From assembly GCA_021462855.1 (NCBI GenBank), contig JAJTXQ010000014.1, forward strand, positions 42,042 through 106,041: a DNA stretch of 64,000 nucleotides, read 5' to 3'. This DNA comes from Dehalococcoidia bacterium. Its GTDB lineage: Bacteria > Chloroflexota > Dehalococcoidia > DSTF01 > JACRBR01. This document shows positions 16,044-59,405 of the stretch, piece by piece; position 1 is the first letter of the stretch; every line of letters begins with the position of its first letter. The position numbers and the translations under genes were made by a program. Under the pieces are notes generated by a model that worked only from the letters and a program-made list of their open reading frames with translations, did not search any database and had not been told where the DNA came from.

Positions 16044-16216
16044 CGATGCCTCCCTGCGCATACGCGTGACCCGATCGTGCCCTGTTTCAGCGGCCGCGTC
16101 CAGATCCCTTTGACAAGTACAACTTGACAAGCGACATCTCGTGGTGTCGCGGCCACGCGTGGCCGCCAAAGGACGCGCGCGCTGTCGGAAGGCGCGTGCC
16201 GGTGGCCCGTGGCGAG

Positions 16217-38232: not shown

Positions 38233-38260
38233 CCCGCGGCACATGCCACGCACACAAATC

Positions 38261-38765: not shown

Positions 38766-38840
<75 letters not shown>

Positions 38841-38944: not shown

Positions 38945-39424
38945 TTACTTGACCTCGAGCTTGCCGAGCATCGTCGCCGGGTGGACGACGCACCAGTAGA
39001 AGTAGTCGCCGGCCTCCAGCGTCAGCTTCAGCTCGTGCTTGACCGGGCCGTTGCTGATCTCCGTCGAGCCGAGCAGCTCGCCGGTCTCGTCCTCTCCCTT
39101 GTACACCTCGATGTTATGGGCGACGCCGGGGTCCTGGTTGTCCAGGATGATCGTGATGGGGCCGGCCGCGGCCTCGATCTCCGGCGTGTCCCAGAGCGTG
39201 TTCTTGGCGGTGATCGTGAACGTGTTGTCGCCGCCGCCCGACGGCGTCTCCGACGACGAGGTCGCCGCCGCCGTGGGGCTGCCGGCAGCCGCCGGCTTTG
39301 TCGCCGTGGCGCCGCCGCCGTTGCCGCCGTCGTCATCGCCGCCGCCGCCACAGGCGACGAATGCGAATGTCAACGCCGCGGCCGCAGCGGCGATGACCAG
39401 TGCCTTCCTTCCTCGGACCATCAT
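38945..39424 (-). CDS. cupredoxin (type-1 blue copper) lipoprotein, putative electron donor to NosZ
   Basis: Lipoprotein signal with lipobox LTFAFVAC and a Gly/Asp-rich linker; cupredoxin ligands H (VAHNIEVY) and C-x2-H-x4-M (YWCVVHPATM). Exceptionally purine-rich SD before the ATG. Confidence 0.8.
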   Translation of the reverse strand: MMVRGRKALVIAAAAAALTFAFVACGGGGDDDGGNGGGATATKPAAAGSPTAAATSSSETPSGGGDNTFTITAKNTLWDTPEIEAAAGPITIILDNQDPGVAHNIEVYKGEDETGELLGSTEISNGPVKHELKLTLEAGDYFYWCVVHPATMLGKLEVK

Positions 39425-39734: not shown

Positions 39735-41777
39735 ATGAGACCCAAGGGCCGATTCCTCGCCATCCTCGCCGTGATGGCATCGCTCCTGCTCACGCTGGGC
39801 GTAACCGTGAGCTGCAGCGACGACGACAACGGCAACGGCAACGGATCCGCCGGGAGCGGCGATTTGGACGCGATTGCCCAGGAGCGCGGGCTTTCGCCGG
39901 ATGACATGCGGCACGCGCTCCAGAGCTTCGTCCCGCCCGGCAAGTTCGACGACTACGTGCTGCTGGCCTCGGGCGGCCACTCCGGGCAGATGCTCGTGAT
40001 CGGCATGCCGTCGATGCGCATCCTCAAGGTCATCGGCGTGTTCACCCCCGAGCCGTGGCAGGGTTACCTCTACGGTTCCGACTGGGGCGAGGTCGCGAAC
40101 GTGGACGCTGACCAGGCCAACCCGCCAACCGAGCTGAGCTGGGGCGACACGCACCACCCCGCAATCAGCGAGACCAACGGCGAGTACGACGGCCGGTTCG
40201 TGTACATCCAGGACCGCGCGAACGGGCGGGTTGGATTCGTCGACCTGCGCGACTTCCGCACGAAGCAGGTCCTCGCCATCCCGAACATCCAGACGTCCCA
40301 CGGCGGCATGTTCGTGACGCCGAACTCCGAGTACGTCCACGTCTCCTCGAAGTTCCCGGAGGTGTGGCCCGAGGGAGCGTATGCGGACCTCACCGAGTAC
40401 AAGGAGAAGTACCACAGCGTCTCGACGTGGCTGAAGATCGACCAGACCACGGGCAAGCTCAACCTCGCCGAGAGCTTCCAGGTCGAGATCCCGCCCTACA
40501 CGCAGGACCTCGCCGACGCGGGCAAGAAAGTCAGCGACGGCTGGGGCTTCATCGGCTCGTTCAACACCGAGATGGCCACCGGCGGCAACATGGAAGGTGG
40601 CCAGTCGATGGAGGCGGGCGCGTCGAAGAACAACTTCGACTACCTGCACGCCATCAACTGGAAGAAGGCCGAGGAAGTCGCGAAGGCCGGCAAGGTCGAG
40701 GAGATGAACGGCATCCGCGTCATCCGCCTCCAGACCGCGATCGAAGAAGGCATCCTCTACCTGATCCCCGAGCCCAAGAGCCCCCACGGCATCGACGTGG
40801 ACCCCTCGGGCCGGTACATGGTCGTCGGTGGCAAGCTTGACCCGCACGTCACCGTCTACGACTTCAACAAGATGCAGACCGCCATCGAGAACAAGGACTT
40901 CGAGGGGAACGACGTCTTCGGCGTGCCGATCCTCAAGTTCGACTCGGTGATGTCCGGCCAGGTCGAAGTCGGCGCGGGCCCGCTGCACACGCAGTTCGAC
41001 AGCAAGGGCCACGGCTACACGTCGCTCTTCCTGGAGAGCGCCGTCGCCAAGTTCACGCTCGGCGACGACGTCGTGCAGACCGGCGAGACGCCGTACACGC
41101 TCGTCGACAAGGTCGCGGTCAACTACAACATCGGCCACCTCGCGATCACCGAGGGCGACACGACGACGCCAGACGACAAGTACCTCGTCGCGCTGAACAA
41201 GTGGTCGATCGACCGGTTCCTGACCGTCGGTCCGCTGCACCCGCAGAACTTCCAGCTGATCGACCTCAAGGGAGGCGACGGCGGGAAGATGGAACTCATC
41301 TCCGACATGCCGATCGGCGTCGGCGAGCCGCACTACGTGCAGATCATCAAGGCCGACAAGATCAAGGCGCTCGATGTCTACCCGGCCGGCACCGACTCAG
41401 CGACGATGCAGAAGAGCGAGTTCGCCATCGAGGGTGGCCAGGAGAAGACGGAGCGCAACGGCAACACCGTCGAGGTGTGGATGTCCGCGCAGCGGAGCCA
41501 CTTCACCCCCGACATCATCCGCGTGAAGCAGGGCGACACCGTCAAGCTCCACATCACGAACGTCGAACAGACGAAGGACGCCACGCACGGGTTCGGCATC
41601 GCCGACTACAACATCCAGGCGAGCCTGGAGCCGGGCGAAGTGTCGAACTTCGAGTTCACCGCAGACAAGTCGGGCGCGTTCAACTTCTACTGCACGGAGT
41701 TCTGCTCGGCGCTGCACCTGGAAATGGCGGGCTGGCTGCTCGTCGAGCCCGCGGGCTCGGCCATGGCCGCCCCGTAG
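39735..41777 (+). CDS. nosZ: nitrous-oxide reductase, clade II (Sec/lipoprotein-type) NosZ
   Basis: 680 aa; non-Tat lipoprotein signal (single R; LLLTLGVTVSC); beta-propeller CuZ domain with conserved His ligands; C-terminal CuA cupredoxin motif HGFGI...FYCTEFCSALHLEMAG. Confidence 0.93.
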   Translation: MRPKGRFLAILAVMASLLLTLGVTVSCSDDDNGNGNGSAGSGDLDAIAQERGLSPDDMRHALQSFVPPGKFDDYVLLASGGHSGQMLVIGMPSMRILKVIGVFTPEPWQGYLYGSDWGEVANVDADQANPPTELSWGDTHHPAISETNGEYDGRFVYIQDRANGRVGFVDLRDFRTKQVLAIPNIQTSHGGMFVTPNSEYVHVSSKFPEVWPEGAYADLTEYKEKYHSVSTWLKIDQTTGKLNLAESFQVEIPPYTQDLADAGKKVSDGWGFIGSFNTEMATGGNMEGGQSMEAGASKNNFDYLHAINWKKAEEVAKAGKVEEMNGIRVIRLQTAIEEGILYLIPEPKSPHGIDVDPSGRYMVVGGKLDPHVTVYDFNKMQTAIENKDFEGNDVFGVPILKFDSVMSGQVEVGAGPLHTQFDSKGHGYTSLFLESAVAKFTLGDDVVQTGETPYTLVDKVAVNYNIGHLAITEGDTTTPDDKYLVALNKWSIDRFLTVGPLHPQNFQLIDLKGGDGGKMELISDMPIGVGEPHYVQIIKADKIKALDVYPAGTDSATMQKSEFAIEGGQEKTERNGNTVEVWMSAQRSHFTPDIIRVKQGDTVKLHITNVEQTKDATHGFGIADYNIQASLEPGEVSNFEFTADKSGAFNFYCTEFCSALHLEMAGWLLVEPAGSAMAAP

Positions 41778-41850
41778 CAATCAACTCCACTGGCGGTGCG
41801 GGCCACGGTGGCCCGCACCCGCCCGTGGTGCATCTTGAGGGAGGTGCATC

Positions 41851-42531
41851 ATGAACAAGATCTTCGGTAAGCCTGACCTGACGTGGATCGTTAGCGCCGT
41901 CATCGCCTGCGCGCTGCTCGCCAGCTCCGCGCTCGTCCCGCTGTGGAAGATGGAGCTCGTCGCGCCGCAATACCCGGAGGGCCTCGTCATGAAGGCGTTC
42001 GGGTACAAGTTCGTCGACGACCCGGGCAGCCGGTACGATGATGTGCGCGAGATCAACGGCCTCAACCACTACATCGGCATGAAGCCGATCGAGGAAGTCT
42101 TCGAGATGCAGATGTTCCTGCCCGGCCTCGCCGCGCTGATCGTCGGCACGCTCGTGCTGAGCTTCGTGAAGTGGCGCCGCACGTGGGTGCGCGGGGTGCT
42201 CATCGCGGGCTTCTGGTTCATCCCGCTGTTCTTCCTCGCCGACCTGCAGGCATGGCTGTACTACTACGGGCACACCATGGACCCCGAAGCCGCGCTCAAC
42301 ACCGGCGACTTCACGCCAAAGGTGATCGGCACGACGAAGGTGTGGAACTTCCACTCCGAGAACAGCGTCGACATCGGCTTCTGGCTGATGGTCATGGCCG
42401 CCCTCGTCATTACGTTCGTACCGCTGTCGGTACGGCTGTTCCGCCGCCTGCGCGCCGCGTCTCCCTCAAACCGGCGCGCAGAGACGGCGGGCCGCGCCGC
42501 AAGCGTCGGCAGCATGAGCGGAGCGCGATAA
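41851..42531 (+). CDS. polytopic membrane protein, NosB-like (clade II nos accessory)
   Basis: 226 aa, 5-6 TM, immediately after nosZ as nosB is in clade II clusters. Family assigned by position and topology only. Confidence 0.55.
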   Translation: MNKIFGKPDLTWIVSAVIACALLASSALVPLWKMELVAPQYPEGLVMKAFGYKFVDDPGSRYDDVREINGLNHYIGMKPIEEVFEMQMFLPGLAALIVGTLVLSFVKWRRTWVRGVLIAGFWFIPLFFLADLQAWLYYYGHTMDPEAALNTGDFTPKVIGTTKVWNFHSENSVDIGFWLMVMAALVITFVPLSVRLFRRLRAASPSNRRAETAGRAASVGSMSGAR

Positions 42532-44036
42532 TGCGTACGCTCGCCGTGGCCGCCGTCCTGGCAGCTACGGCAATCCTGGGGGTGGGCGCGCAGACCGGCG
42601 CGCACAGCGCTGGCGAGGCGCCCACCCTGCAGGAGCGCATCGACCAGGCCGCGCCCGAAGACATCATCGTCGTCGAGGGCGGCACCTTCCACGAGCGCAT
42701 CACCATCAACAAGCCGGTGTCCCTCATCGGGCGCGGCTGGCCCGTCATCGACGGTGGCGGTCAGGGCGACGTCGTGACCATCACCGCCGATGACGCTGTC
42801 ATCTCGGGCTTCGAGGTACGCAACAGCAGCAAGAGCATCTCCACCGAGCCCGCCGCCATCAAGGTCAGCGATGCCGACCGCGTCAGCATCAAGAACAACC
42901 GCGTGCGCGATGCGTACTTCGCGGTGCACATGACGGGCTCGGACAGCAGCACGGTCGCTGACAACGACATCCACGCCGGCGCCGGGGTGGATGAGGGGCG
43001 GCGGGGACACGCGCTGTACCTCTGGGAAGTGCACAACTCGCAGATCCACCGCAACCGCATCCGCGAGGCGGCCGACGGGATCCACCTGGAGTTCGCGAAC
43101 GACAACCTGATCGTCGAGAACACGGTCACCGGCAGCCGCTACGCGCTGCATTTCATGTACTCGCACAAGAACACGATCGTCCGCAACACCTTCACCGGCA
43201 ACCTCGCCGGCGCCGTGCTGATGTTCTCCCACGACCTCGTCGTCAAGGACAACGAGTTCTCGCAGAACCGCGAAGGGGCGACGGGCGCCGGCATGCTGCT
43301 CAAGGACAACGACAACCTCTTCGCCGAGGGCAACCGCATGCTGCGCAACAAGTACGGCATGACGGTTGAAGGCACGCCGCAGACGAAGGGCACCACGGCC
43401 GTGTTCCGCCGCAACCTGTTCGCTCTCAACGACGTCGGCATCGCGCTGACGTCGAACTCGCCGATCACGTTCGTGGAGAACGCGGCGATCGACAACGGCG
43501 TGCAGGTCAAGGCGCTAAGCGGCGCGATCGCCGGCCAGGCGCTCGCCGGCCACGGCGGTTCGCTTCCCGCGCGCGGCCCCGGCGACGATGACGAGCAGGC
43601 GCGCCTGCCCGCGGGCGCCGTGTTCACAAGCAACGGCCGCGGGAACTACTGGAGCGACTACCGCGGCTACGACGCCGACGGCGACGGGGTTGGCGACCAG
43701 CCGTACCTGCCACGCCCGGCGTTCGCCGGCAAGCTGGATGACGACGACACGCTGCGCCTGTTCCAGTTCACCCCGGCGCAGCAGGCGATCGACCTCGCCG
43801 CCGACCTCTTTCCGATCTTCCGCTATCACGCAGTCATCGAGGACCAGGGACCGCTCATGTCACCGCCGGAAGGCCTGGGCGTCCCGCATGGCGAAGGCGT
43901 CAACGTACGCCTGCTCGCTGCGAGCGGCGTCCTGCTGCTCGTTTCGGCGAGCGCCACGCTCTGGCTCTCGGGAGCAGATGCCCGTAACGCATGGCGGGCG
44001 GCCGGCGGCCGCGTTCGGCCCTCGGAGATATCATGA
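42531..44036 (+). CDS. nosD: nitrous-oxidase accessory protein NosD (periplasmic right-handed beta-helix, Cu insertion)
   Basis: Signal peptide, repeated beta-helix NosD/CASH-type repeats (VSGFEVRNSS, NNRVRDAYFAVHM, NTVTGSRYALHFMYS). TAATG overlap with the upstream gene. Confidence 0.88.
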   Translation: MRTLAVAAVLAATAILGVGAQTGAHSAGEAPTLQERIDQAAPEDIIVVEGGTFHERITINKPVSLIGRGWPVIDGGGQGDVVTITADDAVISGFEVRNSSKSISTEPAAIKVSDADRVSIKNNRVRDAYFAVHMTGSDSSTVADNDIHAGAGVDEGRRGHALYLWEVHNSQIHRNRIREAADGIHLEFANDNLIVENTVTGSRYALHFMYSHKNTIVRNTFTGNLAGAVLMFSHDLVVKDNEFSQNREGATGAGMLLKDNDNLFAEGNRMLRNKYGMTVEGTPQTKGTTAVFRRNLFALNDVGIALTSNSPITFVENAAIDNGVQVKALSGAIAGQALAGHGGSLPARGPGDDDEQARLPAGAVFTSNGRGNYWSDYRGYDADGDGVGDQPYLPRPAFAGKLDDDDTLRLFQFTPAQQAIDLAADLFPIFRYHAVIEDQGPLMSPPEGLGVPHGEGVNVRLLAASGVLLLVSASATLWLSGADARNAWRAAGGRVRPSEIS

Positions 44037-44881
44037 ATGCGATGCCTGATGACAAACCACGGCCCATGCTCCGCGTGCAGTCGCTCCAGCGCTCGTACGG
44101 CAAGCGCGTGGTGCTGCGCGACGTCACCTTCGATGCGGCGGCCGGCAGCGTCATAGCGCTACTCGGCAGCAACGGCGCCGGCAAGACCACCGCGCTCAAG
44201 TGCATCCTCGGCGTCATCTCGTTCGGCGGCGAGATAGAGGTCGACGGCTGCTCCGTGAAGAAGGACGGCAAGGAGGCGCGCAAGCGCATCGGCTACGTGC
44301 CGCAACTGCCCGCCCTGGCCGAGGGCGACACCTGCCAGCAGGCGCTCGAATTCATCGCCGACCTGAAGGGCGCGCCACGCGCCGGGATCACGCCCGCGCT
44401 CGAGCTCGTGAACCTGGCGCAGGAGCGCGACGCGAGGATCGGCCAGCTCTCCGGCGGCATGCGCCAGCGCCTGGCCGTCGCCGCGGCCGTGCTGGGCGGC
44501 CCGCCCGTGCTGCTGCTCGACGAGCCGACGGCCAGCCTCGACATCGACAGCAAGCGGGAGTTCCAGCAGCTGATCCTGCGCCTGCGCGACGAGGGTAAGA
44601 CGATCATCCTCTCGACGCACTTCTTCGAGCACCTCGAGGAGCTTGCCGACCGCGTGCTCATCCTGCATGACGGCCGCGTCGCCTTCGATGGCACGACCGA
44701 CGACCTGGCGGCGACGTCCCGCAGCAAGCGCCTCGTCGTCAACCTCAACGGGCACAGCCCGTCGGAGACCGCCGCCGTCCTCGAACGCGCGGGCATCGAC
44801 CGCTCGCGCATCCAGCCCGTAGCGATGGGCTGGGAGGACATCGTGCTGGCGACGCAGCAGACCGAGGAGGACGCGCAATGA
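44033..44881 (+). CDS. nosF: ABC transporter ATP-binding protein NosF
   Basis: Walker A GSNGAGKTT, signature LSGGMRQR, Walker B LLLDEPT. ATGA overlap with the nosD stop. Confidence 0.85.
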   Translation: MNAMPDDKPRPMLRVQSLQRSYGKRVVLRDVTFDAAAGSVIALLGSNGAGKTTALKCILGVISFGGEIEVDGCSVKKDGKEARKRIGYVPQLPALAEGDTCQQALEFIADLKGAPRAGITPALELVNLAQERDARIGQLSGGMRQRLAVAAAVLGGPPVLLLDEPTASLDIDSKREFQQLILRLRDEGKTIILSTHFFEHLEELADRVLILHDGRVAFDGTTDDLAATSRSKRLVVNLNGHSPSETAAVLERAGIDRSRIQPVAMGWEDIVLATQQTEEDAQ

Positions 44882-45702
44882 ACGCCGTCGTCACCGTTGC
44901 CCGCAAGGAAGTGCGCGACGCGCTCAACAGCACGTGGCTGCTCCTCTACGCGGTGATGTTCACCGCGCTCGCTCTCGGCCTCTCGTACCTCGGCGAGCGC
45001 AACCTCGGCTCGCTCGGGTTCGAGAACTTCAGCCGCACGACCGCGAGCCTGCTCAACCTGTGCCTGCTGCTGGCGCCGCTCGTCGCGCTCGCGCTGAGTT
45101 CGGGCGCGATCGCAGGCGAGCGCGACCGCGGCACGCTGACGTTCCTGCTCGCGCAGCCACTCGAGCGCTGGGAGCTGCTGCTTGGCAAGTACGCCGGCCT
45201 CGCCGCGTCGATCGGGCTCGCGACGGCCGCCGGGTTCGGCGTCGCCGGCAGCCTCATCGCGCTGCAGTCCTCGGCGATGGACGCAGGGACGTACATCCTG
45301 TTCCTCGGCCTCGTGCTGGCGCTGATCGTGGTGATGACGGGGCTCGGCCTCGTCGTGTCGGTCGTGTCGGAGTCGCGCGTGCAGGCGCTTGGCATGGCGA
45401 TGCTGATCTGGTTCGTGGCGGCCTTCTTCTTCGACCTCGTGCTGATCGGCATGGTGTCGACGACGTCGCTCGGCGGCGGCGGCCTGCTGCTCGCGCTGCT
45501 TGCGAACCCGATCGAGATCGTGCGCGTGCTGGCGATCATCCGGCTCGAGCCGGACCTGCAGATCCTCGGGCCCTTCGGCTCGTACCTCATGGAGCGCGTC
45601 GGCACGACAGGCGCGACGGTGATCCTCAGCACGGCGCTGCTGGCGTGGATCGCCGTGCCGGTCGGCATCGCCGCATGGCTGTTCGAGGCGCGGGAGGACT
45701 GA
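44878..45702 (+). CDS. nosY: ABC-2 type permease NosY
   Basis: 274 aa, 6 TM, follows nosF with ATGA overlap; GAGGAGG SD. Confidence 0.8.
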   Translation: MNAVVTVARKEVRDALNSTWLLLYAVMFTALALGLSYLGERNLGSLGFENFSRTTASLLNLCLLLAPLVALALSSGAIAGERDRGTLTFLLAQPLERWELLLGKYAGLAASIGLATAAGFGVAGSLIALQSSAMDAGTYILFLGLVLALIVVMTGLGLVVSVVSESRVQALGMAMLIWFVAAFFFDLVLIGMVSTTSLGGGGLLLALLANPIEIVRVLAIIRLEPDLQILGPFGSYLMERVGTTGATVILSTALLAWIAVPVGIAAWLFEARED

Positions 45703-46001
45703 TGGGCCGATGGATCGTCCCGGCCATCGGCGCGCTCGTCCTCAGCGTCGCGATCGTCGCTGGCGCGCTCATTTGGGCCGGCTCCTCCGGCAGCGAGGCA
45801 TCGTGCGACCGCAACGCGCTCGCCGATGCGGCGCGTGACGGGATCGCCGCCGCCGAGCGGGCCGACGACCAGCAAGTGACGATCGAGATGGGCGACGGCT
45901 GCGGGGACGCCGACCTCGAGTTCGTCCTGCCCGAGGTCACTCGGGACTGGCACGTCATGCCCGGCGGCACGCTGATGCGCGCTTCCCAGCACTCCAACTA
46001 G
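45702..46001 (+). CDS. small N-terminally anchored protein at the end of the nos cluster (possible minimal NosL-like; unassigned)
   Basis: 99 aa, one TM then a soluble domain with Cys/Met/His (GDGCGDAD..HVMPGG). TGATG overlap with nosY. Shorter than typical NosL (~170-190 aa). Confidence 0.4.
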   Translation: MGRWIVPAIGALVLSVAIVAGALIWAGSSGSEASCDRNALADAARDGIAAAERADDQQVTIEMGDGCGDADLEFVLPEVTRDWHVMPGGTLMRASQHSN

Positions 46002-46084: not shown

Positions 46085-47098
46085 ATGGAATCCGCTGCAA
46101 CCGATTCGCAGGCGGCGACATTCCTGCGACTGATGACCGAGGCCGAATGGTCCGCGCTGCGCGCGACCATGGAGCGGCGCGCGTACGCCGCGGGCGTGCG
46201 CCTCATCGAGCAGGGGACGCCCGAACCGGAGTTCCACGTCATCGTCGAGGGCACCGTCACGGTGATGGCAACCGGGCCGCATGGCGAGCCGCGCGAGGTC
46301 GGCCTCCTGGGGCCGGGTGACGCGCTTGGCGACATGTCGCTCCTCACCGGCGAGCCCGCCTCCGCCGACGCCGTGGCACGCACAGCGGTCACGACATACG
46401 CCATGCCGCAGGAGCGCGTCGCCGCGCTCGGCGACATGCGCGCGCGCATCATGGAAGCGCTGGCGATGCTCCTCGCGCAGCGGCTGCGGCACGCCAATGA
46501 ACGGCTCGTCGCGAGGTACGCCGCGTGCGTCCACACGATCACCTGCGAGCCGTGCGACCTGCCCGCGCTCGCGCGCCTCCCGCACGAGATGGCACGCGTC
46601 GTCGGTGCGCCCGTGCTGGCAATCACGCCTGCGGGTGCGAGCAACGCGTCTGGCCTGCGCCCTTCGGCGCGCGTCACCGTGCGCGAGTGCGACGAACCAG
46701 CGCAGGCGCGCGACCTCCAGCGGCGGGCGGCGTTCGAGTTCGACCAGATCGTTGTGTTCGCGGCGCCCGGCACCGAGGCGCAGATCGATGGCGAGCTCAC
46801 CTCGCACACGCAGGCGCTCCGCGAAGGCGCGTCCACGACCGTGGCCGGGGACTGCGACGTCATCGCGCTCAGCCCGCTGCGCTGGACGCGCCCGGCGCTC
46901 CGCACGCTGGGCGGCGCCTTCGGCCGGAACGTGGTGGCGTGGTCCCCGCCGAACCGCAGCCGGCGCAGCACCGCGATCCCGTCGCAAAGCTCGCGCGCGT
47001 GCTCACCGGAAGGCAGGTCGGACTGGCGCTCGGCGCCGGCGCGGCGAAGGGGCTCGCGCACATCGGCGCGCTCCGCGCGATCGACGAAATGGGCGTGA
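46085..47098 (+). CDS. cyclic-nucleotide-binding (CAP_ED) domain ORF; likely N-terminal part of a cNMP-binding patatin-like phospholipase disrupted by a frameshift
   Basis: RLIEQGTPEPEFHVIVEGTVTVMATGPHGEPREVGLLGPGDALGDMSLLTGEPASADAVA matches the cNMP-binding beta-roll (GE...R.A phosphate-binding cassette). After about nt 46930 the frame becomes an R/S-rich shadow. Confidence 0.55.
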   Translation: MESAATDSQAATFLRLMTEAEWSALRATMERRAYAAGVRLIEQGTPEPEFHVIVEGTVTVMATGPHGEPREVGLLGPGDALGDMSLLTGEPASADAVARTAVTTYAMPQERVAALGDMRARIMEALAMLLAQRLRHANERLVARYAACVHTITCEPCDLPALARLPHEMARVVGAPVLAITPAGASNASGLRPSARVTVRECDEPAQARDLQRRAAFEFDQIVVFAAPGTEAQIDGELTSHTQALREGASTTVAGDCDVIALSPLRWTRPALRTLGGAFGRNVVAWSPPNRSRRSTAIPSQSSRACSPEGRSDWRSAPARRRGSRTSARSARSTKWA

Positions 47099-47808
47099 CG
47101 GCAGACGTCATCGCCGGCACGAGCATCGGCGCGGCGGTGGCCGCCGGGGGGGCGGCCGGCTACACGCCGCCGGAGCTCGACGAGGTGGTGTCGCGCATCG
47201 CCAGGCGCGCCCTGCGGCCGACGGTGCCGCTGCATTCGTTCCTGAGCAGCCGCGGCATCCGTGACGAGTTGGAGCTGGTCGGCGCGGGGCGGCGGTTCGA
47301 GGACCTCGACATCCCGCTCGCGATCTGCGCGACGGACATCGACCTGCGGCAGGAGGTGACGTTCACGACGGGCATCGTCTGGCCGCGCATTCTCGCCAGC
47401 ATGGCGATGCCCGGGATCTACCCCGCGCTCCGGTCCGGCGACAGTTACCTCGTCGATGGTGGCGTGCTGAACCCGATTCCGGCGCGCCAGTGCCGCATGC
47501 TCGGCGCCGGCGTCGTCGTGGCGCTGCGGCTCAGCGGCAAGCGCCACGACACGCCCCGCGCGGCCGGGACGAAGCCGAACCGCCCGTTCGCTCCGGACAC
47601 CATCCTCCGGTCGATGGAGATCATGCACAACCGCCTGTCCGAAATGAGCCGCCACGAGTCGGACCTGACGGTCGAGATGGCGATCGAGCACGGGGGGTTG
47701 CGCGACTTCCGCCGCAGGGAAGAGACTATCGACGAGGGCTACCGCGCAACGCTCGCCGCCGGGCAGGAGATCCGCGCGCTGCTCCCGTACGTCGGGGAGA
47801 GCGCATGA
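46946..47808 (+). CDS. patatin-like phospholipase domain (frame +1 relative to the cNMP ORF)
   Basis: GLALGAGAAKGLAHIGALRAIDEMGV (oxyanion GGxK), GTSIGAAVAA (GxSxG) and LVDGGVLNPIP (catalytic DGG). Candidate GTG start 46946; the track's frame-1 ORF from 46525 is low-complexity before that point. Confidence 0.6.
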
Positions 47809-48914
47809 CGCTGCTTGCGCTGCGCAACCTGGTGAGCGAGAAGACGCGATTCGCGTTCTCCGCCGCGGGCATCGGCTTCGCCGTCTTCCTCATCACGATG
47901 ATGCTCGGGTTGTACCAGGGCTGGAACACGAAGGTCGGCGGCTTCGTCGAGACTGTCGATGCCGACGCGTGGGTCGCCCGCAAGGGCACCACCGACTTCA
48001 TCAACGCGGCGTCGATCCTGCCCGATGACGTGGGCAGCGACATCGCCGCGACGAATGGCGTCACGTCGGTGCACCCGCTGATCGTGCGGCTGATGTCGTT
48101 CGAGAAAGACGGCAAGAAGGTGGACCTGCACCTCATCGGCTACGACGTGGCGTCCGGCGTCGGCGGGCCGGCGAAGGTGACGAAGGGCGCGAAGGAGCCG
48201 TCCGGCAACCAGATCATCATCGACGAGACGCTCTCGCGCACCGATGGCGTGAAGATCGGCGATGAGCTCAAGGCCGGCGACATGACGCTCGAAGTCGTCG
48301 GCATCGCCAGCGGCGCGAACTTCGCCATCTCACAGGGTGGGTTTATGGATGTCGACTCCGCGCGCGAGATGCTGAAGATGCCCGGGCTGTCGACGTTCTA
48401 CCTGTCGCGGCTCGACGAAGGCGCCGACGCGCGCACCTGGGGCGACGCGTTCAGCGCCGAGCACCCGGATCTCGCCGTGTTCACGTCCGGCGAGTTCGCC
48501 TCCGCGACACGTCACAGGATCCTCGACAACATCGTGCCGATCCTGTTCCTGATCGTCGGCCTGGCGTTCGTCGTCGGCATCGCCGTCACGAGTCTCACCA
48601 TCTACACGGCGACGGTCGAGCGCGCACGCGAATTCGGCGTGATGAAGGCGATCGGCTTTGACAACACGGACCTCTACAAACTGGTGATCAGCCAGAGCCT
48701 GATCACCGGCTTCCTCGGCTTCGTCTGGGGCGCGCTGTTGACGTACGCCCTGAGCCAGTTCGTCGACCTGCTCGTGCCGCAGTTCCTCGTGAACGTGCGG
48801 CTCGTCGACCTGGCGTTCGTGCTCGGCGCCACGCTGCTCATGGCAGCGCTCGCATCGATCGTCCCGGCGCGGCGCGTGGGCGCGGTCGACCCTGCCGTGG
48901 TGTTCAGGGGGTAG
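47805..48914 (+). CDS. ABC transporter permease, FtsX/MacB-like
   Basis: N-terminal TM, large periplasmic domain, and a C-terminal 3-TM FtsX domain (GVMKAIGFDNTDLYKLVISQSLITG). ATGA overlap with the patatin stop. Confidence 0.8.
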   Translation: MTLLALRNLVSEKTRFAFSAAGIGFAVFLITMMLGLYQGWNTKVGGFVETVDADAWVARKGTTDFINAASILPDDVGSDIAATNGVTSVHPLIVRLMSFEKDGKKVDLHLIGYDVASGVGGPAKVTKGAKEPSGNQIIIDETLSRTDGVKIGDELKAGDMTLEVVGIASGANFAISQGGFMDVDSAREMLKMPGLSTFYLSRLDEGADARTWGDAFSAEHPDLAVFTSGEFASATRHRILDNIVPILFLIVGLAFVVGIAVTSLTIYTATVERAREFGVMKAIGFDNTDLYKLVISQSLITGFLGFVWGALLTYALSQFVDLLVPQFLVNVRLVDLAFVLGATLLMAALASIVPARRVGAVDPAVVFRG

Positions 48915-48915
48915 C

Positions 48916-49635
48916 ATGGCCAACGCCGTCCTCGAGATGATCGACGTGACGCAGGTCTTCGGCGACAAGGCCAACCCCACGTACGCGCTGCGCAGCGTCT
49001 CGCTGCAGGTCGAGCAGCGCGAGGTGGTGATCATCATGGGACCCTCTGGCGCCGGCAAGTCGACGATGCTGTCGATCGCCGGCGGCCTGCTGCGCCCCAC
49101 GGCGGGCCGCGGGGTCATCGACGGCACGGAGATCACGCGCCTCGGCGACCGCGCGCTCGCCGCGGTACGGCTGCGCGGCATCGGCTTTGTGTTCCAGGAC
49201 TTCAACTTGCTCGAATCGCTGAACGTCATCCAGAACCTCGAGTTGGTGCTGGCCAGGGCCGGCGTGCGCGGCCGGGCGGCGACGGCGCGCGCCCACGAAA
49301 TCCTGCGCATCCTCGGCCTCGAACAGCGGATGGACTATCGCGTCGGACTGCTCAGCGGCGGTGAGCGCCAGCGCGTCGCGATCGCCCGCGCATTGTGCAA
49401 CAATCCCACCGTGATCATGGCCGACGAGCCGACGGCAAGCCTCGACGGCAAGCGGGGCGCCGAGGTCATGACGATGCTCCGCATGATCGCGCATGACATG
49501 GGCAAAGCGGTGCTCATGGTCAGCCACGACCACCGCGTGCTGGCGTACGCCGACCGCGTCGTCTGGCTGCAGGATGGGCTGCTCGAGAACCGCGAGCCGG
49601 AATCGATGGCAACGATCGCAGCGCCGCAGCACTGA
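48916..49635 (+). CDS. ABC transporter ATP-binding protein (MacB/LolD-like)
   Basis: Walker A GPSGAGKST, Q-loop, LSGGERQRVAIARAL, Walker B IMADEPT. Confidence 0.85.
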   Translation: MANAVLEMIDVTQVFGDKANPTYALRSVSLQVEQREVVIIMGPSGAGKSTMLSIAGGLLRPTAGRGVIDGTEITRLGDRALAAVRLRGIGFVFQDFNLLESLNVIQNLELVLARAGVRGRAATARAHEILRILGLEQRMDYRVGLLSGGERQRVAIARALCNNPTVIMADEPTASLDGKRGAEVMTMLRMIAHDMGKAVLMVSHDHRVLAYADRVVWLQDGLLENREPESMATIAAPQH

Positions 49636-49664: not shown

Positions 49665-50813
49665 ATGGCATCGCGCGGCGCGCCCGCTGACGGCAGCAAG
49701 CACTGGCGCACGCTCTCGCTCAGTCCCGGCGCGCCCGAGTGCGTGATCCGCGCCGCGCACCGCTACTACATCGAGTTGCACCACCCGGACCGTGGCGGCG
49801 ACGTCGCCGCGGCGCAGAGGATCAACGTCGCGAACGACGAGCTGCGAGACGCCGGGGCGAATGCCAACGAGTACGTCGCGGCGAACTTCAACGGCGAACC
49901 GTGGCTCGTGCTCGGCCTCGCCGCCAATGCGCCCAAGGAGCTCGCCGAGCGGGCGAGCCGCGCGCTCGCGCGCGAGCTGAACGAGCATCGCCGGCTCGCC
50001 GAGCGCGTCGCGTGGGCGGCCGAGCACTTCGGGCGCGCGGCGCGCGTGCGCATCCGCCCCGCGACGCCGCCGCCGCCACCGCGCCCGGAGCCCTCGCCGA
50101 AGCCGCGCCCGCCTGCCGTGCCCGGCATCCCCGAGGGGCTGGCGAGCAACGTCCATCTCGGCACGCTGCCTTGGGGCGCCGGCGTCTCCCACGACATCCG
50201 CCTCACCTGGCGCGAACACGCACCCTACGGCGTGCGCGCCGAGACGTCGGGCGCGTTGCGGGCCGAGGTCAACGAGTCGCGCGCGGTGCCGGGCCGGTTC
50301 GTGGTGTCGCTCTCCATCGACTGGGGCGCGATCCCGCCGCCCGACAGCCCGCGCAGCGCGGCATTCGTAGAGTCGGTGCGCCTGGCATGGGGCGGCGGAG
50401 GGAGCGCGACGATCCACGTGCACGCCACCCTGCAACGTCCGCCGGCGATCACCGCACAGCCCGCCGAGATCGACATGGGCACGACGACGCGCGGACAGCC
50501 GGCGCGCGCCACGCTCGTGCTCACGAGCACCGCCATGGCGACGGCGCACGTCTCATGCTCGGCCTGGCTCAAGCGCGTGGATGCCGCAGGACGCGAGGTC
50601 GATGAAGATGTGCGGCTGCGCGCCGATACGCCGGTCCGCCTCTCGTTCGCGGTCGACTGGGCGCCGATCGACGATCGCGCGAAGCGGTGGCCCGTGCGGC
50701 CGACCGGCAAGATCACGGTCCGCTGGAGCGACGGGACGATCGATGTGCCGGTGCAGATGGTAGCCAACGATGCCCGCGCGCCGGTGTCCGCGCGCCCTTC
50801 GACGCGGCGCTAG
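49665..50813 (+). CDS. J-domain (HPD) protein with Pro-rich linker and beta-rich C-terminal domain of unknown function
   Basis: YYIELHHPDRGGD J-domain motif; PPPPPRPEPSPKPRPP linker; ~230-aa C-terminal domain with no recognisable motif. Confidence 0.55.
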   Translation: MASRGAPADGSKHWRTLSLSPGAPECVIRAAHRYYIELHHPDRGGDVAAAQRINVANDELRDAGANANEYVAANFNGEPWLVLGLAANAPKELAERASRALARELNEHRRLAERVAWAAEHFGRAARVRIRPATPPPPPRPEPSPKPRPPAVPGIPEGLASNVHLGTLPWGAGVSHDIRLTWREHAPYGVRAETSGALRAEVNESRAVPGRFVVSLSIDWGAIPPPDSPRSAAFVESVRLAWGGGGSATIHVHATLQRPPAITAQPAEIDMGTTTRGQPARATLVLTSTAMATAHVSCSAWLKRVDAAGREVDEDVRLRADTPVRLSFAVDWAPIDDRAKRWPVRPTGKITVRWSDGTIDVPVQMVANDARAPVSARPSTRR

Positions 50814-56156: not shown

Positions 56157-56945
56157 CTACATCGGCAGGCCGTACTTGTCGGCCAGCTTCTTGATCTCCT
56201 CGATGCGCGCCGGGTCGTTCGGCTTCGCCGGCTCCTGGATCATCTTCGCCGCCTTCAGTTCGGCCACGACCTTGTCGTCGCGCTTGAACGGCTTGCCGTA
56301 CGCGCCTTCGAAGTACATCTCCTCGAACGGCGGGCGCGGCCGCTGGCCGCCGCCATCCGCCCGCTCGGACGGGTAACCGACGAGGATCGTCGAGAGCGGG
56401 ATCCAGTCGTCGGGCGTCTTGAACACTTCCTTGAGCACGGCGCCATTCAGCGTCACGAATCCCACGCCGAGGCCTTCATCGACTCCGGTGAGCAGCGCCT
56501 GGCAGGCAGCGACGCCAACATCGAATGTCGAGGTCACCTGGTAGAACGGGCTGCCCGTCAGGGGCTTGAGGATCTGCGGGTACACGAACTCGTCAACGAA
56601 CTTGTGGCTCCAGCCGTGCGTCGGCGCCAGCGCGCCCACGTCGACCAGCTCCTTGAGCCGCGAACCCTGGATCCGGTTGACGATCCCGAGGTCGTTGAAG
56701 AGGTGGATGTGCACCGGCGCCAGCTCGACGTTGAGCGCGGCGACCGGCGTCAGCAGCCGCTTCAACTGGTCCTCGGCCAGGTCGTCGCGGAACCCGACGA
56801 TGGCGCGCGCCCAGTGCGCGTTGACGGCGCACGACGACAGCCGCATCGCCTCGAGCATCTTCTGAATCTTCTCGCGCTCCACGGGCCGATCCGGGTCGAA
56901 GAACCGGATCGAGCGGCGCGAGCCGATCACTTCCTTGAATTCCAT
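56157..56945 (-). CDS. nitroreductase family protein
   Basis: MEFKEVIGSRRSIRFF FMN-nitroreductase N-terminal signature. ATG 56945 with GGAGG SD; the track ORF is extended at the 5' end. Confidence 0.8.
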   Translation of the reverse strand: MEFKEVIGSRRSIRFFDPDRPVEREKIQKMLEAMRLSSCAVNAHWARAIVGFRDDLAEDQLKRLLTPVAALNVELAPVHIHLFNDLGIVNRIQGSRLKELVDVGALAPTHGWSHKFVDEFVYPQILKPLTGSPFYQVTSTFDVGVAACQALLTGVDEGLGVGFVTLNGAVLKEVFKTPDDWIPLSTILVGYPSERADGGGQRPRPPFEEMYFEGAYGKPFKRDDKVVAELKAAKMIQEPAKPNDPARIEEIKKLADKYGLPM

Positions 56946-57100
56946 GGCGCCTCCACATTGCTGCTGGCCTGTTCCGGCCCGGGAATTGTCCGGCACGCTT
57001 CCGCAAGGCGCCAGAGCCAATTGGCCGCCCCCCGGCGTGGAACCAAACGCCCGCGTGTGCGACGCTTCGGCAGCACGAGCGCCGGCGCGAGGAGGCAGCG

Positions 57101-57910
57101 ATGCACGAACAGATCCTGTACGAAAAGAGCGATGGCGTGGCGGTCATCACGCTCAACCGCCCGGAGCGCATGAACGCCTTCACCGACGTGATGATCCGCG
57201 AGTGGGCTGCCGCGCTCGAGGACGCGCGCCTCGACCCCGCCGTGCGCGTCGTCGTGGTTACGGGCGCCGGGCGCGGGTTCTGCGCCGGCGCCGACCTGCG
57301 CGGCGGCGCCGGCGTCGGCGAGGCGGCGAGCGGCGAGCGGCCGCCGGCGGCCTCCGAGCGCCGCAACTGGCTGCGCGATGGCGTGCACTACGTCCCGCGG
57401 GCCGTGCAGCTGCTGGACAAGCCGTACATCGCCGCAGTCAATGGCGCGGCCGTCGGCGCCGGCATGGACATGGCGACCATGGCAGACCTGCGGTTCGCGT
57501 CCGACGCGGCGAAGTTCGCGATGTCGTACGTGAAGGTCGGGCTCGTGCCGGGCGACGGCGGCTGCTACACGCTGCCCCGCGTCGTCGGGCTGGCGAAGGC
57601 GCTGGAGCTGATCTGGACCGGCGACTTCGTCGACGCCGCCGAAGCGCTCCGCATCGGGTACGTGTCGCGCGTCGTCCCGGGCGATCAGCTCATGGACGAG
57701 ACGCTGGCGTTCGCCCGCCGCCTGGCGGCAGGGCCCGCCGTGGCGATGCAACTCGCGAAGGGGCTGGTGTACCGCGGCCTGAACGCCGACTGGCACGAGG
57801 CATTCGAACAGGCGGGCATTGCCATGTCGATCGCGCAGTCGACCGAGGACGCCCGCGAGGGCCCGCGCGCCTTCGTCGAGAACCGCCCGCCAAAGTTCCA
57901 GGGGCGCTGA
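57101..57910 (+). CDS. enoyl-CoA hydratase/isomerase (crotonase) family
   Basis: ITLNRPERMNAF and GAGRGFCAGADL oxyanion-hole motifs; GAGGAGG SD. Confidence 0.85.
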   Translation: MHEQILYEKSDGVAVITLNRPERMNAFTDVMIREWAAALEDARLDPAVRVVVVTGAGRGFCAGADLRGGAGVGEAASGERPPAASERRNWLRDGVHYVPRAVQLLDKPYIAAVNGAAVGAGMDMATMADLRFASDAAKFAMSYVKVGLVPGDGGCYTLPRVVGLAKALELIWTGDFVDAAEALRIGYVSRVVPGDQLMDETLAFARRLAAGPAVAMQLAKGLVYRGLNADWHEAFEQAGIAMSIAQSTEDAREGPRAFVENRPPKFQGR

Positions 57911-58052
57911 CCGCGGCACGCGCCCGCCTGGTCCGATCGCACCATTTCGGCGCGCCGCACCCGCGCGCTACGCTGTCCTCGGTAAAGTTCTCGTAACTTG
58001 ACCGTGCCGCGCGCCGGAGCGTACGGTACATGAAACTTAGCCGGAGGCTACG

Positions 58053-59405
58053 ATGCGGGTGCGTGTGTTCGAAGTCCTGGAGGAGCGCGGCCAGAAGCAA
58101 CGCTGGCTCCTCGCCGAGCTCGAACGCCGCGGCTACCGCATCAGCGAGGGCTACCTCTCCCAGATCAAGGCCGGCTCGAAGCAGCCCGGCCGCCAGTTCA
58201 TCGACGCGGTGTGCGACATCATGGGCATGCCGGAGCACGAGCTGTTCATCACGCAACGCGAAGGAGGAGCGAGCAGCATGGCAGGAAAGACCGCCGCAAC
58301 GACACCGGCACGAGCGCGGAAGAAGGACGGCAAGGGCAAGATCAACGTCGCCATCATTGGCGTCGGGAACTGCGCGTCGTCGCTCGTGCAGGGCCGCTAC
58401 TTCTACCGCGACGCGCGCGATGGCGAGGTCATCCCCGGCATCATGCACGCCACGCTCGGCGGCTATCACATCAGCGACATCAACTTCGTCGCGGCGATCG
58501 ACATCGACGCCAACAAGGTCGGCAAAGACCTCTCCGAGGCGGTCTTTACCGAGCCCAACAACACCTTCAAGTTCAGCGATGTGCCCCACCAGGGCGTCCG
58601 CGTGTCACGCGGGATGACGCACGACGGCCTCGGCAAGTACCTCTCGACGGTCATCACCAAGGCCACCGGCCCCACCGATGACATCGTCCGCCTGCTGAAG
58701 GAGACCGAGACCGACGTCGTCGTCAGCTACCTCCCCGTCGGCTCCGAGGAAGCGACGAAGTGGTACGTCGAGCAGGTGCTCGCGGCCGGCTGCGGTTTCG
58801 TCAACTGCATCCCGGTGTTCATCGCGCGGGATCACTACGGCTACTGGCCAAAGCGCTTCCGCGAGGCCGGCGTGCCGATCGTCGGCGACGACATCAAGTC
58901 GCAGGTCGGCGCGACTATCGTCCACCGGGTGCTGACGCGCCTGTTCCGCGAGCGCGGCGTCCGCCTCGACCGCACGTACCAGCTGAACTTCGGTGGCAAC
59001 ACCGACTTCCTCAACATGCTCGAGCGCGAGCGCCTCGAGTCGAAGAAGATCTCGAAGACCGGCGCCGTCACTTCGCAACTCGACTACGAACTGCCCGCGT
59101 CCGACGTCCACGTCGGTCCCTCGGACCACGTGCCGTGGCTGCAGGACCGCAAGTGGTGCTACATCCGCATGGAGGGCACGACGTTCGGCAACGTCCCGCT
59201 CAACGCCGAGGTCAAGCTCGAGGTCTGGGACAGCCCGAACTCCGCCGGCGTCGTCATCGATGCCATCCGGTGCTGCAAGATCGCCATGGACCGCGGCATC
59301 GCCGGTCCGCTCGAAGGGCCATCGGCCTACTTCATGAAATCGCCGCCGACGCAGTATGCTGACGATGTCGCGCGCGACATGGTGGAGCAGTTCGTAGCGG
59401 GATAA
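58053..59405 (+). CDS. ino1: myo-inositol-1-phosphate synthase (bacterial/archaeal type) with an in-frame N-terminal XRE-type HTH extension; probable internal MIPS start at 58278
   Basis: Residues 1-75 look like a helix-turn-helix ([28 protein letters not shown]). From M76 (MAGKTAA...[19 protein letters not shown]) it is a canonical NAD-binding MIPS. GGAGG SDs precede both ATG 58053 and ATG 58278; no stop lies between them. Confidence 0.8.

Follow-up and report, generated by a model that had tools for sequence, protein, structure and literature searches.

A sensor-patatin gene of a Dehalococcoidia bacterium, very probably split into two reading frames by a single-base deletion

Two Coding Frames at One Locus

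A 64,000-nucleotide stretch of DNA from a Dehalococcoidia bacterium (Chloroflexota; GenBank assembly GCA_021462855.1, contig JAJTXQ010000014.1, positions 42,042 to 106,041 of the forward strand), referred to here as the window, carries at positions 46085-47808 a cyclic nucleotide-binding (CNB) type sensor domain and a patatin-like phospholipase domain that are encoded in two different frames. As set out below, this region is very probably one gene, split by a plain, non-programmed single-base deletion that is private to this assembly. The region is approximately 70-76% G+C and contains two long open reading frames (ORFs) on the plus strand: ORF A at 46085-47098, which encodes 337 residues, and ORF B at 46525-47808, which encodes 427 residues when counted from the first GTG. 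The two overlap at 46525-47098, and the frame of ORF B is -1 relative to that of ORF A. Pfam family PF00027 (cNMP_binding) matched residues 32-115 of ORF A with an E value of 1.3e-18 (67.2 bits against a cutoff of 27.5), and PF01734 (Patatin) matched residues 167-322 of ORF B with an E value of 1.7e-24 (87.5 bits against a cutoff of 27.7). The gene calls of the source assembly list two separate products, one of 337 residues and one of 239 residues, the latter starting at the ATG at 47089. An earlier note on this DNA, made by a model from the letters and a list of ORFs, had described cyclic nucleotide monophosphate (cNMP)-binding and patatin domains in two frames overlapping at 46525-47098, as the ORFs and the Pfam matches confirm, and the GxSxG and DGG motifs that it placed in the second frame are present there as GTSIG and VDGG.

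Third codon positions are approximately 90-100% G+C in this genome, which makes base composition a guide to the coding frame. The third-position GC fraction was approximately 0.9-1.0 in frame A until about 46925-46970 and in frame B thereafter, and a four-state Viterbi segmentation placed the change of frame at about 46986. Outside its own coding part, each frame was translated into an Arg/Ser/Ala-rich shadow. The Arg/Ser-rich shadow that had been noticed earlier, in each frame where the other one codes, can thus be seen both in the translations and in the third-position GC signal.

The features of the region, all on the plus strand, are the following:

46085-46936, plus strand: 5′ part of the gene in the original frame (ORF A), residues 1-284, with the N-terminal cNMP-type sensor and an alpha/beta middle domain
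46178-46429, plus strand: cNMP_binding domain (PF00027, Pfam), residues 32-115
46936-46937, plus strand: the lesion found by alignment, GG where conspecific assemblies have GGG; the loss of one G shifts the downstream reading by -1
46937-47098, plus strand: out-of-frame tail of ORF A, as translated, with 53 Arg/Ser-rich codons (AWSPPNRSRRST...) and a TGA stop at 47096-47098
46936-47808, plus strand: 3′ part in the -1 frame (ORF B), with a linker helix, the patatin-like phospholipase domain and a TGA stop at 47806-47808
47023-47490, plus strand: Patatin domain (PF01734, Pfam)
47149, plus strand: private substitution TGG>GGG (Trp356>Gly), which makes a G7 run at 47146-47152; the assemblies L001, L009, L010 and L002, described below, all have T

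Homologues and the Missing Base

A fused query was made by joining frame A up to 46942 to frame B from 46942, which gave a protein of 574 residues. This query matched more than 100 homologues, all of them single proteins of approximately 560-600 residues that carry both Pfam domains and are colinear with it over 96-100% of its length. Chance is ruled out as the source of the arrangement, because the fused translation aligns with full-length homologues over both halves with E values of 0 to 1e-180. The best match was P0001, a 574-residue protein (99% identity, 100% coverage) encoded on a 408,912-bp JGI metagenome contig, whose intact patatin domain scored 90.7 bits with Pfam; the nearest named homologues are labelled Chloroflexi, Chloroflexota or Dehalococcoidia. 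The residues encoded by 46085-46936 were 99% identical to residues 1-284 of P0001, and the product of 46936-47808 was colinear with its residues 285-574. The tail of ORF A at 46937-47098 overlaps the conserved N-terminus of the patatin domain, read in the other frame, and the third-position GC signal is gone from it.

The missing base was located by comparison with relatives of graded distance. Three independent assemblies of the same species, approximately 99.5-99.7% identical to the window, were available: the P0001 locus (L001), L009 (SRR6032603) and L010 (SRR34646257), the last two from separate samples. L001 was 99.67% identical to window positions 36086-57808 (21.7 kb), with 70 substitutions and two one-base gaps. 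At 46931-46942 the window reads GTGGTGGCGTGG, and L001 reads TTGGTGGGCGTGG at the same site, with one more G; this lesion is the sole gap in the alignment of the gene. L009 and L010 have the extra G as well and encode an intact protein of 574 residues, and a relative that is 78% identical (L002) reads GTGGTCGGCGT at the junction, likewise one base longer. Since L001, L009, L010 and L002 all carry the extra base, the longer junction is ancestral, and the loss of the base is a private change of the window. When the G is restored, the translation reads ...GRNVVGVVPAEPQ..., in agreement with the family consensus VVGVxP.

Both domains lie in one uninterrupted ORF of approximately 560-600 codons in L001, L002, L005, L007, L009 and L010 as well as in the more than 100 database proteins. 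The window as it stands has no such ORF, and it has one once a single G is restored at 46936. No split or frameshifted relative was found among the homologues from 99.7% down to 30% identity, and the patatin-only matches in the database sit on contigs of approximately 1-7 kb, several of which are labelled partial. A scan of genome_contigs with peptide patterns of P0001 gave no confirmed relative; the exact pattern of the junction, with GG or GGG allowed, had no copy in genome_contigs or metagenome_contigs, and a 51-nucleotide exact pattern beside the junction had none in metagenome_contigs.

These results agree with the proposal, made in the earlier note, of a single gene carrying a -1/+2 frameshift: one base is missing, as the stated direction implies, and three conspecific assemblies have the extra G and one 574-residue protein. 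Orthologues with two genes and the same overlap, which that note had named as evidence against a single gene, were searched for and none was found. The alignment to intact orthologues that it had recommended placed the indel at 46936-46937, and its finer placement of the event has to be corrected. It had put the switch at a C run near 46950; the C run lies at 46944-47, and the lesion is in a G run approximately 10 nucleotides away. There is also no GTG at 46946, where it had suggested a start, and the GTG of the patatin frame is at 46939.

Domains of the Intact Protein

An AlphaFold2 model of intact P0001, built from 51 homologues, had a mean predicted local distance difference test (pLDDT) score of 88.7 and showed three domains. 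Residues ~20-145 form a beta-roll CNB domain that includes a long C-helix, residues ~148-290 an alpha/beta middle domain, and residues ~300-570 a patatin domain. The middle domain, of approximately 140 residues (46526-46954), has pLDDT values mostly between 80 and 96 and no Pfam or NCBIfam model. In the structural model the deletion falls in the last strand of this domain (residues 283-287), so that the regulatory part is separated from the catalytic part.

The catalytic half has the features of a patatin-like hydrolase. The nucleophile Ser347 lies in GTSIG (codon AGC, 47122-47124), and the catalytic Asp458 lies in VDGG (codon GAT, 47455-47457). An oxyanion-hole motif is present near the N-terminus of the patatin domain as the glycine-rich GAGAAKG, a variant of GGGxRG, the usual patatin motif. 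G317, G319, G323, S347, D458 and G459 are invariant in the 51 homologues. The closest solved structure of the catalytic half was PlpD, with an E value of 4e-29 by sequence and a template modelling (TM) score of 0.81 with 5fya by Foldseek at 31% identity; Foldseek matches of the model comprised PlpD, CapE/CapV, plant patatin and CRP-family proteins, and the best NCBIfam match of the C-terminal half was RssA. Judged from its sequence, the gene product would be a cytoplasmic patatin-like Ser-Asp lipid hydrolase of approximately 574 residues with a CAP/PKA-type sensor fold.

The sensor domain matched the regulatory subunits of protein kinase A (PKA) and CRP-family proteins, both in sequence and in structure, and it has the beta-roll fold. 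Its phosphate-binding cassette (46319-46369) reads GDMSLLTGEPASADAVA, compared with GEIALLLNRPRAATVVA in the CNB-B domain of PKA RI, and the alignment shows Arg replaced by Ala and Glu by Asp. The canonical cassette with a conserved Glu and Arg (G-E-x-A-L ... P-R-[AS]-A-[TS]) is therefore absent. None of 27 aligned homologues has the cassette Arg; PASA is found in most of them, and Ser or Thr takes this position in the most distant ones. The sequence EPASA is near-invariant, with P91, S93 and A94 in at least 90% of 51 sequences, and the most distant members read SVSA or SVSS. With Ala in place of the Arg that binds the cyclic phosphate, and Asp in place of the Glu, the idea that cAMP or cGMP controls the protein is an assumption taken from the name of the domain, unsupported by the sequence. 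Binding of cAMP or cGMP by this fold-bearing sensor domain is thus doubtful, and the CNB-patatin subfamily may bind some other ligand, or none.

Origin of the Lesion and Alternative Readings

The missing G could have arisen in the cells or in the assembly. We consider it somewhat more probable that it is real, that is, a strain-specific loss-of-function allele or young pseudogene, in which case the cells would carry the deletion and make no lipase. A consensus or sequencing error, with the organism having GGG and an intact gene and the assembly having dropped one G in a G-rich stretch, is a substantial possibility that falls somewhat short of even. Anything more exotic appears highly improbable.

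The comparison with the sister strain (JGI) covers window positions 2755-64000 (approximately 61 kb) through L011, L013, L001 and L014. Over these 61 kb there were 156 substitutions and three indels, and all three indels are one-base deletions in the window. Two of them are intergenic (AAAA>AAA at 16168 and CC>C at 38240), and the third is the GGG>GG at 46936. That every indel is a single-base homopolymer deletion in the window speaks for an error in the consensus. The same may be said of the other private change in this gene, where a T>G within the 8-mer context GGTGGGCG, shared with the deletion, creates the G7 run, and of the finding that every other assembly of the species is intact. On the other hand, GG/GGG is very short for a homopolymer error, and the 156 single-nucleotide polymorphisms (SNPs) resemble natural strain variation, with 36 synonymous and 29 non-synonymous changes in the codon-classified 21.7 kb. 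Random errors would place at least two of three indels in the approximately 10% of sequence that is intergenic with P ~0.03, and the observed distribution thus favours natural, selection-filtered variation.

The coding signal in the rest of the window also argues against frequent errors. In the other segments of third-position GC phase in the 64 kb, the reading reaches to within approximately 60 nucleotides of the in-frame stop, except at the end of nosD (42521-43825), where the signal fades 211 nucleotides before the stop and no switch occurs. The CNB-patatin gene, with a gap of 112 nucleotides, has the sole direct mid-ORF switch of coding phase among approximately 55 genes.

A real allele is favoured first by the distribution of the indels, which is of the kind that selection leaves. 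Second, Trp356>Gly is a radical private change nine residues past the catalytic Ser, at a position that is aromatic or aliphatic in 26 of 26 aligned homologues, and it fits relaxed constraint. Third, six of the nine SNPs in the gene between the strains are non-synonymous and three are synonymous, which suggests weak constraint in the species. Against this, the gene shows one frameshift and one radical substitution only, with no stops and no larger decay; the non-synonymous differences mostly arose in the intact sister clade rather than in the window, and the SNP density of the gene is no outlier. Raised SNP density was considered as a sign of decay and rejected, since the nine SNPs observed against 4.4 expected (P = 0.035) are exceeded in other regions and the changes are mostly derived in the sister clade.

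Two side observations were made in the same comparison. The 8-mer GGTGGGCG, the one in which the G was lost at 46936, has four plus-strand copies in the 21.7 kb, of which two differ between the strains, both in the CNB-patatin gene. The highest substitution density relative to the sister strain, 17 SNPs per 1.7 kb compared with approximately 4.4 on average, was found at 56200-58900, around nitroreductase-like and enoyl-CoA hydratase genes, and the changes there are mostly synonymous.

Several points weigh against the reading of this locus as a sensor-controlled lipase gene broken by a private deletion. The base call rests on the assembly consensus, from which an error and a real mutation are not separable, and uniform one-base deletions in short homopolymers are a pattern that a systematic consensus error would also give. 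The ancestral VVGVV would be regained if decoding slipped by -1 exactly at GUG-G (46934-46937), and low-level decoding by this route is a remote possibility. Furthermore, the label "cNMP-regulated" may be wrong, as the canonical cNMP-binding Arg is absent, and both the enzyme function and the ligand control are predictions.

Two functional overlapping genes, arising by natural domain fission into a sensor-only protein from 46085 and a free patatin from an internal start, are very unlikely. Frame B does offer three in-frame starts (GTG 46939, GTG 46999 and ATG 47089), the last of which is used for the 239-residue product in the source gene calls. However, a screen for Shine-Dalgarno-type motifs found none before any of the three, which also tells against the overlapping genes with a GTG start that the earlier note had listed among its options. 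A start at ATG 47089 would remove the invariant glycine-rich motif (G317, G319 and G323), and the 53-codon tail of ORF A is the out-of-frame shadow of conserved sequence. No homologue is split, and the patatin-only matches come from short contigs (~1-7 kb), partly labelled partial. We therefore rejected this reading for want of a recognisable Shine-Dalgarno motif and of any split relative.

Least probable of all is a programmed -1 ribosomal frameshift or transcriptional slippage that would yield the full-length protein from the shifted template: its sole support is that re-reading of G46936 after the GUG codon would regenerate the ancestral VVGVVP exactly, and it was rejected because frame A has no canonical slippery heptamer (X_XXY_YYZ) within 46525-47098 and no relative has the shift, not even the strains that are 99.5-99.7% identical, whereas programmed shifts are conserved. 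The G run is too short for polymerase slippage; no homopolymer of at least five identical bases occurs within the 46525-47098 overlap, and the sole nearby run is the G7 at 47146, downstream of it.

Gene Neighbourhood

Three genes follow the CNB-patatin gene:

47805-48914, plus strand: MacB/DevC-type FtsX permease of 369 residues (Pfam FtsX and MacB_PCD; NCBIfam DevC/LolCE-like), the ATG of which overlaps the patatin stop (ATGA)
48916-49635, plus strand: ATP-binding cassette (ABC) ATPase of 239 residues, DevA/LolD/MacB-like by profile matches, directly after the permease in all relatives examined
49665-50813, plus strand: ORF of 382 residues, the fourth gene of the cluster in close relatives, with no Pfam, NCBIfam or PADLOC match

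The 4-nucleotide ATGA overlap and the gene order were the same in L001, L002, L007, L009 and L010, and in L005 the overlap is one nucleotide. The trio of CNB-patatin, permease and ABC ATPase genes is kept in relatives down to 50% protein identity, and at the position of the 382-residue ORF, relatives at approximately 50% identity carry a GDPD glycerophosphodiesterase. P0073, a protein of 930 residues, has MacB_PCD, cNMP and patatin domains in one chain. At 49112 in the ABC ATPase gene, a window-derived T>G changes Val to Gly (GTG>GGG) in ...TAGRVVIDG..., a radical T>G beside G residues at a position that we take to be hydrophobic as a rule; it could be a slightly deleterious polymorphism or a miscall.

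A nitrous-oxide reductase (nos) cluster lies directly upstream of the CNB-patatin gene, at 39735-46001. It comprises genes for a NosZ-like protein (nos_propeller and cupredoxin, 680 residues), a 226-residue protein with no match, NosD, an ABC ATPase, an ABC-2 permease and a 99-residue protein with no match. A divergently oriented cupredoxin gene (38945-39424) is found near this cluster, and a tRNA-Gly (GCC) at 38766-38840 is the sole Rfam or ARAGORN match in the 64 kb. A link between the CNB-patatin gene and the nos cluster was considered and rejected, as the upstream genes are unrelated in more distant relatives.

Comparison with Known Systems

The protein belongs with the bacterial CNB-patatin fusions that are named "NTE family protein". 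Like them, it carries a cNMP_binding domain followed by a Patatin domain and is of comparable length (approximately 570-585 residues in those proteins), and the Ser of GxSxG and the Asp of DGG are invariant. Compared to these fusions, the copy in the window differs in that its frame is broken by a one-base deletion, and its subfamily differs in two respects. First, it has an extra alpha/beta middle domain of approximately 140 residues without a Pfam model. Second, its phosphate-binding cassette has no Arg. Rv2565 of Mycobacterium tuberculosis shares the CNB-patatin architecture, and in the literature searched no characterised bacterial CNB-patatin protein was found beyond a table entry for Rv2565 and Rv3728.

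In its order of sensor followed by patatin, the protein also parallels the eukaryotic PNPLA6/NTE and PNPLA7, in which a patatin-type (lyso)phospholipase domain follows cNMP-binding domains on the same polypeptide (PMC9025805, PMC5704489). The likeness is at the level of domains only; distant matches that carry PF24179 were 27-29% identical. PNPLA6/NTE and PNPLA7 are far larger, are anchored in the membrane of the endoplasmic reticulum and have several CNB domains, whereas the protein described here has one CNB domain and no further Pfam or NCBIfam match (membrane segments were not predicted separately). PlpD of Pseudomonas aeruginosa (PDB 5fqu/5fya), the closest structure, is the passenger domain of a type Vd autotransporter and has no sensor domain; in contrast, the protein in the window has no autotransporter domain match, is fused to a sensor and appears to be cytoplasmic.

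CBASS and Pycsar effectors follow a similar logic, in which a sensor of small nucleotides controls an effector that damages membranes or cleaves lipids. PADLOC gave weak matches at the domain level (the CNB domain of PycTIR at 9e-11 and the CBASS phospholipase at 1e-6), and CapV/CapE match the protein structurally but are without a CAP-type CNB domain. No nucleotide cyclase or CD-NTase adjoins the CNB-patatin gene. A Pycsar or CBASS defence reading was rejected on context, with nos genes upstream and the conserved FtsX/ABC transporter (and GDPD in relatives) downstream.

As a coding arrangement, the locus is nothing new but an ordinary frameshifted gene. The NCBI annotation pipeline flags such genes as "frameshifted" pseudogenes, and the same holds here: one conserved ORF appears as two neighbouring calls because a short homopolymer carries a single-base indel, and nothing distinguishes the case in the window from the others.

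Implications

The CNB-patatin gene heads a conserved cluster that includes a MacB/DevC-type ABC transporter, and its intact product may be a ligand-gated lipid deacylase that works with a lipid or lipoprotein-type exporter in the turnover of membrane lipids. With one G of the GGG missing, translation from 46085 ends at 47098. A ribosome starting there would read the sensor and middle domains (284 native residues) and then 53 out-of-frame codons up to the stop at 47098; the catalytic domain, which lies in the -1 frame, would not be translated, and the permease gene downstream would presumably lose its translational coupling.

Were the split allele both real and expressed, a free sensor-plus-middle fragment could be made, together with an unregulated patatin through reinitiation (GTG 46939 or 46999) or a little full-length protein through a -1 slip at GUG-G. 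Such an allele would be a natural experiment in which the regulatory half of a CNB-patatin enzyme is parted from the catalytic half. Independently of the frameshift, the whole subfamily may sense a ligand other than cAMP or cGMP, since its cassette has Ala in place of the Arg, and may work with the exporter and GDPD in the turnover of membrane lipids. There is only a slim chance that this whole picture holds.

It would be wrong to report the two ORFs at 46085-47808 as two proteins, or as an instance of recoding, and the frameshift itself matters little. A real deletion would mean that this strain lacks a sensor-controlled lipase still present in its closest relatives, and a polar effect on the coupled ABC transporter genes would then be possible. 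Modestly useful are two by-products of the analysis. One is a conserved operon in Chloroflexota-like genomes, in which the CNB-patatin gene is followed by a DevC/MacB-type permease gene and an ABC ATPase gene, with or without GDPD. The second concerns the sensor domain, which lacks the canonical cNMP-binding Arg.

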